From: an uncultured virus (IMG/VR IMGVR_UViG_3300045253_000007) | Lineage: Duplodnaviria; Heunggongvirae; Uroviricota; Caudoviricetes | Length of the DNA stretch: 20,000 bases | Strand: one strand, 5' to 3' | Virus record (IMG/VR): IMGVR_UViG_3300045253_000007 | In this document: piece by piece, positions 2,162 through 18,182 of the stretch | Layout: each line of letters starts with the position of its first letter | How positions within the stretch are numbered: the first letter of the stretch is position 1 | Notes under the pieces: generated by a model | Told to the model about the DNA's origin: nothing | Seen by the model: the letters and a program-made list of their open reading frames with translations, nothing else | Databases searched by the model: none | Position numbers and translations under genes: made by a program

Positions 2162-2265
2162 CTTGCATTGTCGTTGACAGTGTGGTAGTATGGTAGTTGT
2201 AACAAGGTGAGTTAACAACAAGCGTTCAGACAATCGGCTTGGCTCATTTATTTGGAAGGAAAACA

Positions 2266-3084
2266 ATGTCTATTACATTTTTAGGCACAGATTTTTCTGT
2301 GCCTATTTCTATGCAAGAACTGTATTCTGATAATACACCTAGAATCAAGATGGAAAATTTTGAGACGGTGTGTCAGAAGGCAGATACCGTCGTGGTTAAG
2401 CAAGGCTCTCTAGCAGAGTTTGTTAACGCGATGTTCTTGGTTGATTCTATTGCCTTAAAGGGCGGTAAGATTAGGAAGTTGATTCTTCCTTTCCTACCGG
2501 GTGCCCGACAGGATAGAGTTAATATAGACGGTGATGTTCTATTCACCGCTTCCTCAGTGGCGCAAATGATTAACTTGCGCGGCTTTGAGCAGGTCATTTC
2601 TGTTGACCCCCACTCCCGAGTAATGCCGGGATTCATCTACAACTTTGTCGAGTTTCCTCTCGCCAAGGTTTACGAGAAGTTGCCCAAGTCTTATGACGGA
2701 GTTATCGCTCCTGACAAGGGTGCTAAGGCTCGTGCCCGAACCGCTGCTCGTGTTCTGAATAAAACAGTCACGTACGCAGACAAGGTGCGCGACCCAGCGA
2801 CCGGTAGTCTATCAGGCTTTGCTGTCAACGTTGATGAAGACAAGCACTATATTGTCATTGATGATATAGCAGACGGTGGAGGCACGTTCCTTGGACTAGG
2901 AGAAAAGATTGCTGAACAAGGTGCCACGGCTGACCTTTACGTCACGCACGCTATCTTCTCAAAGGGAACAGACGACTTGAAAAAGATTTACAAGAACATC
3001 TACACAACAAATTCAATTAATAATGGACAGCGACCACTGGACGTAATCCGTCTGGACGTTGTGACAGAAATGGAGAAATACTAA
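2266..3084 (+). CDS. prs: Ribose-phosphate pyrophosphokinase family protein (candidate Adps of NARP1)
   Basis: PFLPGARQDR, VDPHS, APDKGA, VIDDIADGGGT, YVTHAIFS PRPP-synthetase motifs; ATG at 2266 follows GGAAGG. Confidence 0.9.
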   Translation: MSITFLGTDFSVPISMQELYSDNTPRIKMENFETVCQKADTVVVKQGSLAEFVNAMFLVDSIALKGGKIRKLILPFLPGARQDRVNIDGDVLFTASSVAQMINLRGFEQVISVDPHSRVMPGFIYNFVEFPLAKVYEKLPKSYDGVIAPDKGAKARARTAARVLNKTVTYADKVRDPATGSLSGFAVNVDEDKHYIVIDDIADGGGTFLGLGEKIAEQGATADLYVTHAIFSKGTDDLKKIYKNIYTTNSINNGQRPLDVIRLDVVTEMEKY

Positions 3085-4598
3085 TGTTTACGCTTAACCC
3101 GATTTTTCAGACGGACGGATACAAGTTGGACCACCGCCGTCAGTACCCGAAGGGTACACAGTACGTTTACTCAAACTGGACCGCTCGCGGTAGCCGAGTT
3201 CCCGGTATCAACAAGGTCACGTTCTTCGGCCTACAGTATGCGCTAAAGAAGTTGAACGATGAGTTTAAGGCTAACTTCTTCGCACGCGATGTAGACGAGG
3301 TTTGCAATGAGTATCAGGCAATGCTTGATTCTTTTCTAGGGCCGAACGATATCGGCACCGACCACATCAGGGCTTTGCATACTCTTGGCTACTTGCCTCT
3401 AGAGGTTAAGGCACTTCCCGAGGGTACCCGCGTTCCTCTCCGCGTTCCGATGCTTACCATCGAAAACACGCACCCGGAGTTCTTCTGGCTTACCAATTAC
3501 TTTGAGACAATCTTGTCTGCTGAGTTGTGGATGCCGATGACGAGCGCAACCGTTGCTTCTCACATTAGGCAAGACCTAAACGAGTGGGCATTGAAGACGA
3601 CCGGTAGCACCGAGGGCGTTGGTTTCAGCGGCCACGATTTCAGCATGCGAGGCATGGCCGGTGCTGAGGCTGCTATCGCTAGTGCCATGGGTCACCTTGT
3701 TGCCTTCACTGGCACCGAGACGGTTCCTGTTCTACAGGCTATTCCGTATTACTACCCCAACACAGGGTTCTTGGCCGGTACAGTTCCAGCAACAGAGCAC
3801 AGCGTTATGTGTGCAGGCGGTAAGGAAGACGAGACGGAGACATTCCAGCGTTTGCTAGATTTGTACCCGACTCAGATTCTAAGTGTCGTTTCTGACACAT
3901 GGGATTTCTGGAATGTTCTTACCAACATTCTTCCTAGCCTAAAGGACCAGATTCTTGCTCGCGGTGCAAACGGCGGTAAGTTGGTTGTACGTCCCGACAG
4001 CGGTGACCCTGCTGACATTATCTGTGGTACTAATGCTCAGGCAACTGATAATAACGGATGGGATTCTGTCGAAAAGGGTGCTATTCAGGTTCTCTGGGAT
4101 GAATTCGGCGGTACCATCAACGAGCAGGGCTACAAGGTTCTTAACCCAGCCGTAGGACTCATCTACGGTGACGCCATGAACCGTGGACGCATCAACAATA
4201 TTAACGAGCGTCTTGCAGCCAAGGGCTTCGCCAGCACAAACTGGGTCGCCGGTATTGGTAGTTTCAATTACCAATACCAGACTCGTGACACGTTCGGCTT
4301 TGCTATGAAGGCAACCAACGTTGTTATCGAAGATGAAGAAAAGGCTATCTTCAAGGACCCGAAGACAGACAATGGTTTGAAGAAGTCCCTAAAGGGTCGT
4401 ATCGGAGTCTTCACGCTAAAGAACGATGAGGACAACAGTCTTGTCAAGGGCAGCAAGGGCGACCTAGTTGCATTTGATGAACTCCGTAAGGATAGTAGCG
4501 CTTATGAAAATAGTCTGCTAGAGCCTGTGTTTAGGGATGGTGTCTTCATCAAGGAATGGACCTTTGATGAGGTTCGTGCAAACAGCGGACTCGTTTAA
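3084..4598 (+). CDS. nadV: Nicotinamide phosphoribosyltransferase family protein (candidate Namat of NARP1)
   Basis: TDGYKLDH, HDFSMRG, PATEHSVM, SVVSDTWD, VRPDSGDP, IYGD, KDPKTD NAMPT motifs; TAATG coupling to the prs-like gene. Confidence 0.95.
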   Translation: MFTLNPIFQTDGYKLDHRRQYPKGTQYVYSNWTARGSRVPGINKVTFFGLQYALKKLNDEFKANFFARDVDEVCNEYQAMLDSFLGPNDIGTDHIRALHTLGYLPLEVKALPEGTRVPLRVPMLTIENTHPEFFWLTNYFETILSAELWMPMTSATVASHIRQDLNEWALKTTGSTEGVGFSGHDFSMRGMAGAEAAIASAMGHLVAFTGTETVPVLQAIPYYYPNTGFLAGTVPATEHSVMCAGGKEDETETFQRLLDLYPTQILSVVSDTWDFWNVLTNILPSLKDQILARGANGGKLVVRPDSGDPADIICGTNAQATDNNGWDSVEKGAIQVLWDEFGGTINEQGYKVLNPAVGLIYGDAMNRGRINNINERLAAKGFASTNWVAGIGSFNYQYQTRDTFGFAMKATNVVIEDEEKAIFKDPKTDNGLKKSLKGRIGVFTLKNDEDNSLVKGSKGDLVAFDELRKDSSAYENSLLEPVFRDGVFIKEWTFDEVRANSGLV

Positions 4599-7457: not shown

Positions 7458-8245
7458 GAAAACTCACATCGATGCCTGCAAGCAAACGTGGTTTTGATAA
7501 CTAAATACATAGGGGCATGGCCCTGATAAGCAATCGCAAGATTGCGAAAGGTGGAGTGACACCCGCCGCCAGCAATGGTCAATTCATGCAATGCAAATCG
7601 TTAAGTAATATCCTATCAGATGTTGCAGTAACGTAAGCCACCCAGTCGATGTCCTATGGATGAGACTACCTGACAAGGTAAGAGGATAAACGGTGAGCGT
7701 TATGTTCGATACGCAGGGATATACGAATCCGAGGTTTGCAGCCAAGGGTGACTATCCATGAAACGTATGAAGTGGGCCGGTAGGCTCATGGGAGCGTAGA
7801 GATTGTAAGTAGCCGCAAGCGAAAGCATATTGAAGGAGTGAAGCATTCTTATTCTCAAAAGGAATCGGAACTTCGTGTTAAAGCACTTCTTCGTCAAGTC
7901 CCTTCGGGGCAGGGATTATATGCCCCGACATACAATGATAATGTATATCACAATATAAAGCAAAAGACTTTAACCCTGTGAGATGCGAAAGCGTCTTAAT
8001 GCCAGACCGAAAGGAATCTGGTGCAGAGGAAGGCCGCAAGCCCAATCTGTTTGGTATCAAAGTAGGAACCTTTAGCGGCTTAGCGGCTGCTCTTGTTTTC
8101 AAAATGAGCCGAGTAGCCTCACAGGTAAAGAGCGGTTGGCTTAACCAACTAGGCGCAGAGGCTACCGTAGCGATACGGTGGAAAAGCAACTAAACCATAC
8201 GGTTGCAAGAGGTCTCTATGTTAGGGTGAATTCTAAGCCCTCACA
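7458..8245 (+). ncRNA. GOLLD-like large ncRNA
   Basis: ~790 nt between tRNAs with no credible ORF; many GNRA/UUCG hairpins (7530-7545, 7980-7997, 8163-8180); long-range CCTGTGAG/CTCACAGG pairing; motif order TATTGAAG...CTCAAAAGG...AGCAAAAG...GAGTAG...GTGGA resembles GOLLD as I recall it. Confidence 0.7.
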
Positions 8246-9056: not shown

Positions 9057-9129
9057 TTTAGGATAGTGTAAAGTAACACGCCAGCCTTTAACGCTGGTAA
9101 TGCGGATTAACGACCCGATTCTAACACCA
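9057..9129 (+). tRNA. tRNA-like gene with TTA anticodon (ochre-suppressor-like)
   Basis: D arm GTGT-AAAGTA-ACAC; perfect CCAGC-CTTTAAC-GCTGG anticodon arm; acceptor TTAGGA/TTCTAA; encoded ACCA; degenerate T arm. Confidence 0.6.
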
Positions 9130-11091: not shown

Positions 11092-11454
11092 GGGGATGCC
11101 ATGGTATCGCCTCGGTGTAGAGAGAAATGAACGCAACCCGTGTTACGAAATGACAGACACGTTAAACAGTTATTTCAACAATAAATGCAAACGACGCAAT
11201 CGTTGCTAAGGCTATGGAAAACTTTGACTCTGAACTAGAGGCATTGCTTTCTGAGGCCGCTCTTATCTCTGCGTAAGTAGAATAAGACTAGGTACCGGCG
11301 ACCTAGCGAACCAAATGCCGGAATAGGAACTATCCTTAAATAGTTGGTGGACCCGGAGCAATCTGGCCTAGCAATACCGGGCGCGGTACGCAATGGTTGT
11401 ATAATGTTATTGATTAAAGCACTGAGTACGTGAGTTCGACTCTCACCATCTCCA
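11092..11454 (+). ncRNA. ssrA: tmRNA
   Basis: GGGGATG/CATCTCC-A acceptor with G3:U70; GTGAG-TTCGACT-CTCAC T arm; ATAAAT|GCA resume context; tag frame 11187-11276 ANDAIVAKAMENFDSELEALLSEAALISA*. Confidence 0.92.
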
Positions 11455-11563
11455 CGATTAGAGCGAAAGTAGTTTGGATTCAAAGTTCAAGGAGATTTTC
11501 AATAACCTACCAGCAGAGCAAAGGCGTGACATTTCAAACCGCTATCGTAAGTAGGAGGCAAGG

Positions 11564-12056: not shown

Positions 12057-12085
12057 TTGACATACCCAGCGCGGTAGTGTATAGT
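12057..12085 (+). promoter_or_regulatory. SigA-type promoter
   Basis: TTGACA-N17-TATAGT with GCGGTAGTG in the spacer. Confidence 0.8.
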
Positions 12086-12138: not shown

Positions 12139-12225
12139 TCTGGTAAGGCGACTGTTGGCTAGTCGCGGTTGGCTGTTAACCAACTCGGTTTGATTCCGTC
12201 TCAGGTTCGATTCCTGATTCCAGAG
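12139..12225 (+). tRNA. Atypical tRNA-Asn(GTT) with long variable arm and 6-bp D stem
   Basis: GCGACT/AGTCGC D stem; GTTGG-CTGTTAA-CCAAC; CGG-TTTGATT-CCG variable arm; TCAGG-TTCGATT-CCTGA. Confidence 0.8.
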
Positions 12226-12326
12226 CAAAGGCAGGGAACGCTACCGAATCTATTCCGTGGTGAGACTAGGGATGGAAAAGATATAAGATTGTTGTCTCAT
12301 CCAAATCTTATATCACGTATCCACAT

Positions 12327-12398
12327 TGGAGTGTAACTCAGCGGCAGAGTGGTCGGCTGTTAACCGACTTGTCGAAGGTTCGAATCCTTCCATTCCAG
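12327..12398 (+). tRNA. tRNA-Asn(GTT)
   Basis: TGGAGTG/CATTCCA-G; GTCGG-CTGTTAA-CCGAC. Confidence 0.93.
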
Positions 12399-12422
12399 CG
12401 TAAAATACAGATAAGGAACAAC

Positions 12423-12695
12423 ATGAGTTGGTCAGCAAGTTTTGACGTTGTTAATAATGACGTTGTTGAAGGTAGCGGTAGTGAATCAAACGTAGAGGTC
12501 GATTATCACAGTGACCAATACACGCAGGCAATAGTTGCTGCATTTGATTTGATTAACTCTGGTGTCTTCGGTGACCCAGACAACAATTCATTCAGGGTTA
12601 CTTTCAGTGGTCATGGCAATCCGGGACACGTTCCGCTTGCAGGTTGGTCAAATGATAGCATCTCTATCAGTATTTATCAGTTAAATAAAGTTTAG
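12423..12695 (+). CDS. Hypothetical protein, 90 aa
   Basis: ATG 12423 after AAGGA; the longer ORF-track start lies inside tRNA-Asn. Confidence 0.75.
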   Translation: MSWSASFDVVNNDVVEGSGSESNVEVDYHSDQYTQAIVAAFDLINSGVFGDPDNNSFRVTFSGHGNPGHVPLAGWSNDSISISIYQLNKV

Positions 12696-12910
12696 TTCGG
12701 AACCACGCGGGTAGAAATATCTGAGGAAAGTCCGGGCGGCAGGTAACAATCCATGTGGTAAAGACTAACTACCTCCCACTAAGCATAGCCTAAGAAGTAA
12801 TGTGAGGATGACGCAAGCGCAAACAGTTCTAGGGGTTACCACCTGTGATGAACGGGTAGCGTGCATAGTTAGATGTGGTTCTAAAACAGAACCCGGCTTA
12901 CGGAACTAAA
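12691..12910 (+). ncRNA. rnpB: Minimal RNase P RNA (bacterial type A-like catalytic domain)
   Basis: CR-I GAGGAAAGTCCGGGC (12723-12737); CR-V AACAGAACCCGGCTTA (12885-12900); CR-IV AGTTAGAT; P1 TTTAGTTC/GAACTAAA; P2 GGAACCAC/GTGGTTCT; P6 GGTAAC/GTTACC; L15 GGTA. Confidence 0.9.
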
Positions 12911-12928
12911 TATAACTTAATAAGCAGT

Positions 12929-13000
12929 GTTGGATTGGTGAACGCGGTATCACAGAGGCGTCGTATCCCTCAGTAAAGAGTTCAAGTCTCTTATCCAGCC
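12929..13000 (+). tRNA. tRNA-Thr(CGT)
   Basis: GTTGGAT/ATCCAGC; GAGGC-GTCGTAT-CCCTC (one mismatch); AAGAG-TTCAAGT-CTCTT. Confidence 0.7.
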
Positions 13001-13002
13001 CC

Positions 13003-13073
13003 GCCTCTTTCGCTTAATGGTAAAGCATCACTCTTGTAAAGTGAATCTATCAGTTCGATTCTGATAAGAGGCT
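13003..13073 (+). tRNA. tRNA-Thr(TGT)
   Basis: GCCTCTT/AAGAGGC; TCACT-CTTGTAA-AGTGA. Confidence 0.9.
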
Positions 13074-13078
13074 CGCAG

Positions 13079-13153
13079 GTCTCAGTAGTTCAGTGGTAGA
13101 ATACTTTCTTGGTACGAAAGTGGTCGAGGGTCCGATTCCCTCCTGAGGCCCCA
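13079..13153 (+). tRNA. tRNA-Thr(GGT)
   Basis: GTCTCAG/CTGAGGC-C-CCA; CTTTC-TTGGTAC-GAAAG. Confidence 0.88.
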
Positions 13154-13154
13154 T

Positions 13155-13228
13155 TTCTGGTTTTCTCTGTTGGCAGGGCGGCTTGGCTTTGAACCAAGTT
13201 TTCGTAGGTTCGATTCCTACACCAGAAG
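13155..13228 (+). tRNA. tRNA-Gln(TTG)
   Basis: TTCTGGT/ACCAGAA-G (U1:A72); CTTGG-CTTTGAA-CCAAG; GTAGG-TTCGATT-CCTAC. Confidence 0.85.
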
Positions 13229-13253
13229 CGAAGGACCAAAAGTCCTAACAGAT

Positions 13254-14968: not shown

Positions 14969-15000
14969 TTGACACGGTACCACCAAGTGTGGTACCGTGT
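14969..15000 (+). promoter_or_regulatory. Promoter overlapping a perfect inverted repeat
   Basis: TTGACA at 14969; ACACGGTACCAC-CAAGT-GTGGTACCGTGT. Confidence 0.6.
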
Positions 15001-15028
15001 TTCCGTACCCACAACACAAGGAGTTACT

Positions 15029-15514
15029 ATGCGCATCAACAAGGGTGACCTATTCACCAGCGATTGCGAGGCACTAGGCCACGGCGTTAACGTGCGTGGA
15101 CTCATGGGAGCCGGTATCGCAAAGACGTTCAAGGAACGTTATCCAGAAAACTACCTGTCTTACGGACAGCAGTGCAAGGTCAACGGTCTAATTCCGGGCG
15201 GCGTTCTCGTTGTACCTTGTTACGAGGCAGACATGAATGCCAAGCACGTCCAGCGTTATATCGTAAATATGGCTAGCCAAAGGCAGCCCGGTCCAGACGC
15301 AACCTACTCGTGGCTTTTCTCTTCTGCTTTGGCAGCAGCCAAACAGTTGAAGTCCATCGGCGTTTACGAATGCGCCATTCCTGAGATTGGTTGTGGCATC
15401 GGCGGTCTTGAATGGCCGGTAGCGGAACTGATTCTTACTACCATTGAGCAACTCGTTCCCGGTTTCGAATGGGAAGTTTGGCAATACGCTCAGGTAACGT
15501 ACAATGAAGGTTAA
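15029..15514 (+). CDS. Macrodomain (ADP-ribose processing, DarG/TARG1-like) protein
   Basis: GDLF, HGVN..GLMGAGIA..FK.RYPE, PEIGCGIGGLEW; ATG 15029 after AAGGAG. Confidence 0.9.
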   Translation: MRINKGDLFTSDCEALGHGVNVRGLMGAGIAKTFKERYPENYLSYGQQCKVNGLIPGGVLVVPCYEADMNAKHVQRYIVNMASQRQPGPDATYSWLFSSALAAAKQLKSIGVYECAIPEIGCGIGGLEWPVAELILTTIEQLVPGFEWEVWQYAQVTYNEG

Positions 15515-15779
15515 GTTCTACAAAGGTCCATATCATGGCAAGGTGCAAGAGCACCAGATAATGAGTTTTGACTTACCAATAATTGTCGATGTGCTACCTA
15601 AGCGTTTTAGTGCAACATATTTTAATGCCAGCACGTATTATCCTACAACCATTCAAACAGACCGACACATTTATCGAATTAGGATGATGGGTGTCAAAGA
15701 CTCTACCGGCAAGATGTATCAGGCACCAGCCATGCACCCGGATGGTAGTCTTTTCTACGTATACGAAGGAAAATACTAA
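15504..15779 (+). CDS. Hypothetical protein
   Basis: 91-aa ORF overlapping its neighbours in operon fashion; N-terminal FYKGPYHG. Confidence 0.75.
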   Translation: MKVKFYKGPYHGKVQEHQIMSFDLPIIVDVLPKRFSATYFNASTYYPTTIQTDRHIYRIRMMGVKDSTGKMYQAPAMHPDGSLFYVYEGKY

Positions 15780-16267
15780 TGTGGACACTAAAACAACTTA
15801 AGTTATTACTTCGCAAGAGCGGTGGTACAACTGACTTTAGCCAGAGTGCGGTGGTTGTCTGGCCGGTATTCTACCCGGAGGACATGTTCCCGCCAAACGA
15901 CCCACATGTTACCGTCCTTTACATGCCTGATGTTAGTAACACTAATAAGAAGGACGTGATTGACGCTATCAAGAAAACAGACTGGAACACAATGCCGCTG
16001 GCTCGCGTCAGTGGACAGGAGATGTTTGGTCCGTTGAAGGACACGCCGGTACTGACGTTGGACCACGATTTCCTTGAAGAATACTGGAATCAATTGCAGG
16101 GTGAGTTTCAACTCGCTGGTATTGAGTATTCTCAGAGGTTCCCAGAGTACCGACCGCACGTCACCATCACGCAGGATGCGGTAGCGTTTGACAATTTCCC
16201 GACGCAGTTTCTTCTAGCGCCGGTAGAACTTTGGTGGCAAGAGCAGAAGGTTTCCATCAGTGACTAG
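15779..16267 (+). CDS. 2H phosphoesterase (Acb1 / 2'-5' RNA ligase superfamily)
   Basis: Two HxT motifs: PHVTVLY and FPEYRPHVTI. Confidence 0.8.
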   Translation: MWTLKQLKLLLRKSGGTTDFSQSAVVVWPVFYPEDMFPPNDPHVTVLYMPDVSNTNKKDVIDAIKKTDWNTMPLARVSGQEMFGPLKDTPVLTLDHDFLEEYWNQLQGEFQLAGIEYSQRFPEYRPHVTITQDAVAFDNFPTQFLLAPVELWWQEQKVSISD

Positions 16268-17339: not shown

Positions 17340-18182
17340 ATGCAAATATTTATGGTTGGCGGTGCTGTCCGCGACGAGTTGCTTGGACAGAAGTCCAAGG
17401 ATTTGGATTACACCGTAGTTGTCAGTCCAGAAGAATGTTTTAATGGTCATTCTTGGGAAACTTACGACCCCTTCCGCGTCATGGTCAATAAACTAAAGTC
17501 TGACGGATATAAGATTTTTCTTGAAACTCCTGAATACTTTACTGTTCGCGCACAAACTCCTGACAAAAGAGAAACAGCCGACTTTGTTCTTGCTCGCAAA
17601 GAGGATAAGTACACCGATGGACGCAGGCCAGATAAGGTCGAGGTTGGAACACTTCTAGATGATTTGGGCCGTAGAGATTTTGGAATGAACGCTATCGCCA
17701 AGGCCGCAGACGGCTCTCTCATCGACCCGTTTAATGGTCGTGAGGATATCACCCAGCGTATTATCCGAGCCGTTGGTGACCCCGTAGAACGTCTTACAGA
17801 GGATGCTCTCAGGGCAGTCCGAGCCTTCCGCTTCGCTGTGACCAAGGGTTTCTTGATTCAGAGAGACCTTAGTAAAGCAATGGAGTCCGACGAGGTTCTT
17901 AACGCTATTGAAACCAAGATTTCTGACGAGCGCATTCAGCAGGAACTCTCCAAGGCTTTTAGGTTCGATACTGGTCTGGCCGGTAGTGTTCTATTTTACG
18001 GATATCCAGACTTGGCAGAAGCATGTTTCGCCGGTAGTGTATCACTTGACGCTACCATGAAGACAAAGGGTTTTAACAAGCCCAAGCCAGATAACAAGCG
18101 TAAAAACTTGCCAGAAGCGCGTAATGGTTGTACTTGCTCCTGTCACACAAGTGGCGGAATGCACATCTCTAAGTGCTGTTGA
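17340..18182 (+). CDS. cca: Class II tRNA nucleotidyltransferase (CCA-adding/poly(A) polymerase family)
   Basis: VGGAVRD...DLD, DLGRRDFGMNA, DPFNG, EDALRAVRAFRF, SDERI; AGGAGG RBS. Confidence 0.92.
   Translation: MQIFMVGGAVRDELLGQKSKDLDYTVVVSPEECFNGHSWETYDPFRVMVNKLKSDGYKIFLETPEYFTVRAQTPDKRETADFVLARKEDKYTDGRRPDKVEVGTLLDDLGRRDFGMNAIAKAADGSLIDPFNGREDITQRIIRAVGDPVERLTEDALRAVRAFRFAVTKGFLIQRDLSKAMESDEVLNAIETKISDERIQQELSKAFRFDTGLAGSVLFYGYPDLAEACFAGSVSLDATMKTKGFNKPKPDNKRKNLPEARNGCTCSCHTSGGMHISKCC

Follow-up and report, generated by a model that had tools for sequence, protein, structure and literature searches.

A family of small type A RNase P RNA homologs encoded in phage tRNA arrays

Introduction

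Can a phage encode its own RNase P RNA, and how little of the ribozyme does such an RNA retain? RNase P RNA is regarded as a cellular housekeeping ribozyme, bacterial rnpB RNAs being about 350-400 nucleotides (nt) long, and the translation parts known in phages are tRNAs, tmRNA and the CCA-adding enzyme. The question is raised by a 20,000-nt stretch of DNA from an uncultured virus of the Caudoviricetes (IMG/VR record IMGVR_UViG_3300045253_000007; the whole stretch is hereafter called the window), in which an earlier note had proposed a phage-encoded minimal RNase P ribozyme of about 220 nt with a shrunken specificity domain. Here we report that positions 12690-12911 of the plus strand (222 nt) are homologous to the type A RNase P RNA of bacteria, both by direct reading and by alignment to the Rfam model RF00010, and that the same RNA occurs in cultured phages. 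We are nearly certain that this RNase P RNA homolog is real, under selection and encoded by a phage; it is a structural variant of a known ribozyme, new in form, and its biological setting is new as well.

Identity and extent of the RNA

The class A model RF00010 (curated gathering score 100 bits) aligned end to end with window positions 12689-12916 (model positions 1-367, 73.2 bits, E 1.7e-22 in a search of 391 nt) and was the best match within its clan, which indicates a bacterial core sequence. The catalytic domain is complete and comprises P1-P5, including P4, the P6 pseudoknot, P15-P17 with GGU in L15, and the conserved regions CR-I, CR-IV and CR-V (Table 1). Essentially all coordinates and helix calls of the earlier note were correct by direct reading and by the RF00010 alignment (the additional P2 pair that it drew, G12699-U12882, is possible), and its identification of an RNase P RNA whose catalytic domain is intact and whose specificity domain is drastically reduced is borne out by the full-model alignment together with the permutation and pair-count tests given below. 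The two universal strings that form P4 are located at 12723-12737 and 12886-12900, and none of the seven P4 pairs varies among the 24 family sequences. The GCAA string (J5/15) and the AGNNRGAT string of CR-IV are likewise present in 24 of 24 members, and a C-R-G-G-T-A string (L15 of the GGT type) in 22 of 24. P18, whose loss had also been noticed earlier, is absent from the window RNA (0 nt matched against 24 RF00010 positions), and because of this absence the CR-IV string lies in J15/2.

The window contains one copy only, as judged with our own covariance model (R1, see below), and no open reading frame (ORF) of at least 40 amino acids lies within 12696-12910 on either strand. The RNA is not among the default Rfam matches of the window at the gathering threshold; standard annotation misses it because its score is under that of RF00010.

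Relatives in cultured phages and viral contigs

A scan of viral contigs, metagenomes and genome bins for the pair of universal strings at a short distance from each other gave 11, 52 and 25 loci, respectively, and a non-redundant set of 83 sequences (window counted). The covariance model R1, built from the window RNA and 12 close relatives with a hand-drawn structure, recovered 22 sequences at 138-215 bits, all others scoring at most 108.5 bits; with RF00010 the relatives reach 60-85 bits. By blastn against cultured phages, the RNA was found in two phages of Microbacterium foliorum, A3Wally (MZ150783.1, complete genome of 194,724 bp; R1 210.7 bits, RF00010 72 bits) and a second Microbacterium phage, the record of which is described as a complete genome (R1 190.1 bits). 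In both phages the RNA lies in a large tRNA array, where it takes up the whole of a stretch of about 216 nt, free of annotation, between two tRNA genes, and neither record has an annotated feature at the RNA locus; phage genome annotation is incomplete here because standard pipelines miss the sub-threshold match. Further carriers are IMG/VR viral contigs of 19-203 kb. A scan for the signature of the insert enclosed by P7 added at least one viral contig (L253, 136.5 bits): two of the 80 listed loci fit R1 (L253 and the contig of L001, which was already known), and the other 78 are chance matches. The family alignment comprises 24 sequences with a GC content of 45-63%, five of which form one close A3Wally-like group.

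A labelling discrepancy was observed between the two Microbacterium phage records (L204 and L205): at the same positions of the locus, one labels its tRNAs as if the anticodon were the codon, e.g., tRNA-Pro(ccg), for which the other gives tRNA-Arg(ccg); ARAGORN calls Arg, and one record is likely in error.

It is very improbable that the RNA is a cellular gene, e.g., of a reduced-genome bacterium of the candidate phyla radiation (CPR), and that the window is not phage DNA. Diverged RNase P RNAs without P12, P13, P14 and P18, which were found by lowering the RF00010 threshold, are described from CPR bacteria (Lui et al. 2021, PMC8172020; statements from papers cited here by PMC number refer to those of their parts that were available), the short-gap pattern also matches genome bins of Patescibacteria and Elusimicrobia, and the family member L140 comes from a metagenome contig of 885 kb that may be megaphage or cell. 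However, among the 23 non-redundant sequences from genome bins (25 loci) there was no case of the window subtype (the best, L188, has 108.5 bits and a different insert), whereas this subtype is present in a complete cultured phage genome, and the gene content of the window is phage-like. The earlier proposal of a virus-borne RNA, to which a cellular chromosome had been named as the counter-case, is thus upheld by the same RNA in the complete A3Wally genome, the second Microbacterium phage record and the IMG/VR viral contigs. L140 itself is of the window type (212.8 bits), and no tRNA lies closer to it than about 290 nt.

Covariation within the family

Plain MAFFT alignments misplaced P7, P15, P6 and one hairpin of the insert (Sb, see below) because of indels and were dropped; the covariance model and an alignment-free test were used instead. 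In the 24-sequence model alignment 86.9% of the cells were paired, compared to 67.8% in column shuffles, and 44 of the 63 pairs showed changes on both sides. The covariation score was 0.494, which none of 500 shuffles reached (0.163 in shuffled alignments), and it fell to 0.05-0.10 when the partners were slid by 1-3 columns. The alignment-free permutation test compared the pairing of each 5' strand with its own 3' strand and with the 3' strands of other members (5000 permutations): for P1, P2, P3, P5, P6, P15, P16 and P17 the observed value was matched in 0 of 5000. The P6 pseudoknot is the clearest case (run of 6.05 with the own strand, 3.47 with strands of other members); the window has GGUAAC/GUUACC, and relatives carry quite different yet mutually complementary strings at these positions. 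For P2, P4 and P6, the helices in which the earlier note had expected covariation among homologs, six of seven pairs (P2) and six of six pairs (P6) change on both sides, and P4 is invariant (24 of 24).

These data bear directly on the possibility that the RNA is a functionless, decaying fragment of a captured host rnpB, to which we give hardly any credence. Its deletions relative to type A are large and its score is below the gathering threshold, as decay would predict, but 24 sequences of 45-63% GC share the same architecture, every variable helix shows compensatory changes, the core is invariant and the insert is itself conserved; decay can be considered largely refuted by the covariation already.

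The 53-nt module within P7

P7 encloses exactly 53 nt (12753-12805), as the earlier note had counted, and in the RF00010 alignment 140 positions of the specificity domain are replaced by 51 unaligned nt. Throughout the family P7 and two hairpins of this insert, here termed Sa and Sb, form a three-way junction; the hairpins are at the positions of P8 and P9 in the canonical P7/P8/P9/P10 junction, the P10-P14 arm being missing. The helix of Sa is GUGG/CCAC in the window and GUAG/CUAC, GCAG/CUGC or CUGG/CCAG in relatives, with a variable tip. UAA joins Sa to Sb, the helix of which is GCAU/AUGU in the window and GCCC/GGGU, GCUC/GAGU, GCUC/GAGC, GCAC/GUGC or GCCA/UGGU in relatives, and G(C)A links Sb to the 3' strand of P7. 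The loop closed by Sb is conserved (13 nt in the window, 12787-12799); its consensus, R-C-Y-U-A-A-R-A-A-G-Y-A, is present in 24 of 24 sequences, with an additional U in the A3Wally group and an additional G in L145. It contains the pentamer UAAGA in the window and UAAAA in most relatives.

For the archaeal RNase P RNA of type T, the remnant of the specificity domain is described as a single stem with one putative T-loop, UAAAA, modelled as stacking on the tRNA's T-loop, and the same source remarks that T-loops are difficult to recognise in a sequence (PMC13462272, 2026). The Sb loop holds UAAGA or UAAAA, comparable to the UAAAA of type T, which makes elbow contact through a single T-loop a live hypothesis for the phage RNA; the chances that the Sb loop contacts the tRNA elbow in this way, in an architecture unlike that of type T, seem to us about evenly balanced. 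The earlier note had interpreted the small insert as loss of the elbow-reading domain and suggested that substrate specificity could be relaxed. The first point is doubtful, since the insert is a conserved two-hairpin module with a loop motif in 24 of 24 members and a pentamer that resembles type T's putative T-loop, and because of this conservation and this pentamer relaxed specificity is not implied; the identification and the setting that the earlier note gave were largely right. The 3' half of the insert was also considered as a CR-III homolog, a reading that was dropped as unsupported.

Other RNase P RNAs in viral contigs

Two further sequences from the scans are reduced in other ways. 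L009 (385-653, minus strand) keeps P8, P9, P10/11 and CR-II and has 12 nt in place of P12-P14, and L006 (369-575; about 207 nt, 118.5 bits) is without P12-P14 and P15-P17 but retains P8, P9, P10/11 and P18. Because these two lost different elements, the reduction of RNase P RNA has taken several routes. Four viral contigs of 162-463 kb (L029, L038, L057, L084) carry near full-size RNase P RNAs (181-308 bits, above the Rfam threshold), which are flanked by tRNAs in L029, L038 and L057; none is listed beside L084. The RNA of L029 also adjoins a tmRNA match that is weak (41.3 bits) and does not reach the gathering score. RNase P RNAs in the tRNA arrays of large viral contigs thus range from full size (308 bits) to about 205 nt, a qualitative continuum drawn from the listed matches of a scan for the 5' motif alone, many of which were without the 3' motif. 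In blastn searches against cultured phages, the fuller viral forms matched unannotated metagenomic records only, or nothing.

Genomic setting of the window

The 20-kb window encodes 31 tRNAs (ARAGORN), a tmRNA and a GOLLD RNA. Its protein genes matched HNH endonuclease, ribose-phosphate pyrophosphokinase, NAMPT, ATP-dependent DNA ligase, macro-domain phosphatase, 2H phosphoesterase and tRNA nucleotidyltransferase, and PHROG matches were obtained for HNH endonuclease, NAMPT, DNA ligase and tRNA nucleotidyltransferase. When the whole window was compared by megablast with 50,697 phage records, the only matches were tRNA-sized ones to Streptomyces and Rhodococcus phages, and the window thus represents an uncatalogued phage; there is a weak hint of an actinobacterial host.

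The RNA is preceded, in this order, by a strong promoter-like site (Table 1), two genes for tRNA-Asn and a small acidic ORF, and no credible terminator was found between the site at 12057-12085 and the RNA. Across the family, an upstream tRNA on the same strand ends at -2 to +16 nt from P1 in 12 of the 24 members and a downstream tRNA starts 2-17 nt past P1 in 7 of the 24, counts that are not independent, because five of the sequences are the one close A3Wally-like group. From this adjacency, 3' processing of the tRNA upstream and RNase P cleavage of the tRNA downstream may define the ribozyme's own ends.

Table 1. Coordinates of the RNA, its elements and associated features in the window
Feature	Position	Strand	Basis
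Promoter-like site, TTGACA-17-TATAGT	12057..12085	+	11/12 matches; consensus match only
Mini RNase P RNA, P1 to P1	12690..12911	+	RF00010 73.2 bits; own covariance model R1 209.5 bits
P1	12690-12699 with 12901/12903-12911	+	RF00010 alignment; 9/10 pairs change both sides; permutation 0/5000
P2	12700-12706 with 12875-12881	+	6/7 pairs change both sides; permutation 0/5000
Short P3, GAAA loop	12708-12713/12718-12723	+	3/4 modelled pairs change both sides; permutation 0/5000
CR-I GAGGAAAGTCCGGGC, includes P4 5' strand 12728-12735, U12731 bulged	12723-12737	+	direct reading, RF00010
P5, one G-A mismatch	12736-12740/12810-12814	+	3/5 pairs change both sides; permutation 0/5000
P6 pseudoknot, GGTAAC with GTTACC in P17 loop	12742-12747 with 12835-12840	+	6/6 pairs change both sides
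P7, ATCC with GGAT	12749-12752 with 12806-12809	+	direct reading
Hairpin Sa (12755..12779), GTGG with CCAC	12755-12758 with 12776-12779	+	100% of cells paired; 3/4 pairs change both sides; permutation 89/5000
Hairpin Sb (12783..12803), GCAT with ATGT	12783-12786 with 12800-12803	+	71.6% paired (understates pairing seen by eye); 3/4 pairs change both sides; permutation 88/5000
TAAGA pentamer in Sb loop, putative T-loop	12791..12795	+	TAAGA/TAAAA in 18/24; one extra T in the other 6
P15-P16-P17 arm	12817..12862	+	each helix 0/5000 in permutation test
P15	12817-12820/12859-12862	+	direct reading, RF00010
P16	12826-12829/12850-12853	+	direct reading, RF00010
P17	12831-12833/12842-12844	+	direct reading, RF00010
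GGGTA, L15 3' side	12854-12858	+	direct reading; putative pairing site for tRNA 3' CCA
CR-IV string AGTTAGAT in J15/2	12867-12874	+	direct reading, RF00010
CR-V/P4 3' strand ACAGAACCCGGCTTA	12886-12900	+	direct reading, RF00010, pair counts
Downstream tRNAs, Thr x3, Gln	12929..13229	+	first begins 17 nt past P1
CCA-adding enzyme	17340..18182	+	PF01743 5.4e-20; phrog_24229 1.4e-48

The GOLLD RNA (7831-8240, plus strand) matches its model over the full length at 188.3 bits (gathering score 150) and belongs to the same tRNA-rich region. The tmRNA (11092-11457, plus strand; Rfam 94.3 bits) has a long tag peptide predicted by ARAGORN, ANDAIVAKAMENFDSELEALLSEAALISA, and phage tmRNA is likely another RNase P substrate. 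The two tRNA annotations differ at several loci: tRNAs at 89-177, 1386-1458 and 9057-9126 are listed by Rfam but not by ARAGORN, whereas an 88-nt tRNA-Asn (12139-12226) and a tRNA-Thr (12929-13002) were found by ARAGORN only and are absent from the Rfam gathering list. One ARAGORN tRNA (519-592) has a two-base 'anticodon', and some of the window tRNAs may be aberrant. At 2239-4598 (plus strand) the ribose-phosphate pyrophosphokinase-like gene adjoins NAMPT, which looks like a phage NAD+ salvage pair. The macro-domain phosphatase (14969-15514, plus strand) and the 2H phosphoesterase (15779-16267, plus strand; weak Acb1 and 2'-5' RNA ligase matches) could have a role in RNA repair or counter-defence.

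Probable protein partner and proposed mode of action

RnpA (Pfam PF00825) was not found in the viral records searched (0 of 5 and 0 of 4, the latter including the whole A3Wally genome); in a control search the same model found it in 10 of 14 named genomes. The earlier note had the RNA working probably with host RnpA. This is compatible with the nine viral records, none of which encodes a recognisable RnpA, while the use of the host protein is something that we infer as the simplest reading.

That the RNA is an active ribozyme which dispenses with host RnpA, either alone or together with an unrecognised phage protein, so that the phage would be independent of the host protein too, seems rather unlikely. 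Bacterial RNase P RNA needs non-physiological salt for protein-free activity, and the CR-IV and CR-V regions, which contact RnpA in the bacterial holoenzyme structure, are conserved in the phage family. No conserved protein gene adjoins the RNA, which has tRNAs on both sides in A3Wally, and the ORF that precedes it in the window, an acidic one, has no family match. Such independence would accord with PF00825 being unmatched in the nine viral records, with the many phage ORFs that belong to no family, and with the ability of catalytic domains to cleave in vitro without protein (PMC5839562). The upstream ORF (12369-12695) was also considered as a candidate protein cofactor and was rejected, as it is acidic, without family match and absent from the A3Wally locus.

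The RNA might alternatively be a decoy or regulator: bound to host RnpA or to pre-tRNAs, but not cleaving, it would divert or inhibit the RNase P of the host. A viral precedent can be cited in the RNase P-like RNA of camelpox virus, reported to be inactive in vitro (PMC3001073), and the specificity domain of the phage RNA is drastically reduced. Purifying selection, however, extends beyond the protein-binding surface to all elements that catalysis and substrate docking require, namely P4, the J5/15 string, the GGT of L15, the P6 pseudoknot and CR-IV/V, and the RNA is placed among tRNAs that themselves need RNase P, so that we consider a decoy unlikely.

We therefore return to the reading of the RNA as an active tRNA 5'-maturase that uses host RnpA, which, judged from sequence comparison, is probably correct. 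Several points weigh against it or against the evidence on which it draws. The RF00010 gathering score is not reached by the window RNA. The minimum free energy fold of 12691-12910 does not recover the structure and does not surpass shuffled sequences (z 0.24), although uninformative folds are usual for pseudoknotted ribozymes. P7 was not significant in the permutation test and has 50% of its cells paired in alignment A5; its weak support in the family is partly due to a variable spacer of 0-3 nt, and the percentages for P7 and Sb in A5 understate the pairing seen by eye because P7 and the 3' side of Sb are imperfectly aligned there. The alignment was fitted to our own hand-drawn structure, and the covariation controls leave in the kinship of the sequences. 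Neither of the canonical elbow-binding elements, CR-II and CR-III, can be recognised in the window RNA or in the insert of the family. Only 4 of the 31 window tRNAs encode CCA after the discriminator base, and in the others the GGT of L15 could pair only after CCA addition, which bears on the order of the processing steps. Finally, the RnpA negative was obtained with the single model PF00825 on nine viral records, seven of which are incomplete or of unstated completeness, and 20 kb is all that is visible of the window's phage.

In the mechanism that we propose, the RNA would be the RNA subunit of a phage RNase P, in which the type A catalytic domain is kept and the specificity domain of about 190 nt is replaced by the two-hairpin module of 53 nt. 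It would be transcribed within the tRNA polycistron and released by the nucleases that excise the adjacent tRNAs, namely by 3' processing of the upstream tRNA and by an RNase P cut at the 5' end of the downstream tRNA. Assembled with host RnpA, it would remove the 5' leaders from the many tRNAs of the phage, and probably from its tmRNA too, and tRNA maturation would thereby become independent of the supply of host rnpB. The conserved Sb loop perhaps contacts the elbow of the tRNA as a single T-loop, in the manner modelled for archaeal type T.

Significance

No description of a phage-encoded RNase P RNA was found in the full-text literature, a search with subscription journals and huge-phage surveys outside its scope, and in the available part of PMC7191817 the words 'phage', 'virus' and 'viral' do not occur; the statement of the earlier note that it recognised no described phage family of this form agrees with our literature searches. 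With a conserved phage form, a catalyst of tRNA 5' maturation would join the translation parts borne by phages, and a natural answer is provided to the questions of how small a bacterial-type RNase P RNA can be and what minimal structure can substitute for its specificity domain. As the RNA is present in cultured phages of Microbacterium foliorum, its activity, RnpA dependence, the role of Sb and its effect on fitness are directly testable.

A broader proposal can be offered tentatively: that phages carry an unannotated spectrum of RNase P RNAs, of which the present one is the smallest natural bacterial-type form, that it is excised from its tRNA polycistron by RNase P, possibly by itself, that it reads the tRNA elbow with a single T-loop set in a newly formed two-hairpin specificity module, and that this solution evolved independently of type T. 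All of this together is possible but somewhat doubtful; if true, phages would be natural experiments on the limits of RNase P minimisation.

Comparison with known RNase P RNAs

Compared to bacterial class A (RF00010, 367 model positions), the phage RNA (222 nt) has in common P1-P5, the bulged U of P4, the P6 pseudoknot, P15-P17 with GGU in L15, and CR-I, CR-IV and CR-V. It differs in that P10-P14, CR-II, CR-III and P18 are missing, two small hairpins stand at the sites of P8 and P9, P3 is short, and the gene is encoded within a phage tRNA array. The RNase P RNAs of CPR bacteria are also type A derivatives without P12, P13, P14 and P18, but they are cellular, essential and single-copy, whereas the phage RNA is part of a phage genome (PMC8172020). 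In the closest genome-bin sequence of our set (L188) the insert differs and includes a GTGAAA string.

The catalytic domain of type A RNA is, as far as the accessible text goes, catalytic by itself with reduced efficiency, the P6-like interaction matters and P18 is dispensable (PMC5839562); the engineered Eco CP RPR of that study is a laboratory truncation to the catalytic domain, while the phage RNA is natural and conserved and has a small structured specificity module. The camelpox virus RNA shares with the phage RNA that it is virus-encoded and related to RNase P, but it belongs to a eukaryotic virus and is of eukaryotic origin, whereas the phage RNA retains all elements of the catalytic core (PMC3001073).

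The closest parallel is archaeal type T, with RNAs of 195-215 nt in the P finder table (PMC7191817). In the parts of PMC13462272 that we draw on, type T agrees with the phage RNA in its comparable size, an intact catalytic domain with P15-17 and the P6 pseudoknot, a minimal specificity domain and one putative T-loop pentamer. In type T, however, the specificity domain is a single stem and the T-loop lies between P7 and P9, whereas the phage RNA has a three-way junction with the motif in a hairpin loop (PMC13462272). Type T combines an archaeal core with archaeal proteins; the phage RNA has a bacterial core, and the hosts of its two cultured carriers are Microbacterium. The resemblance between the two is best read as convergence.

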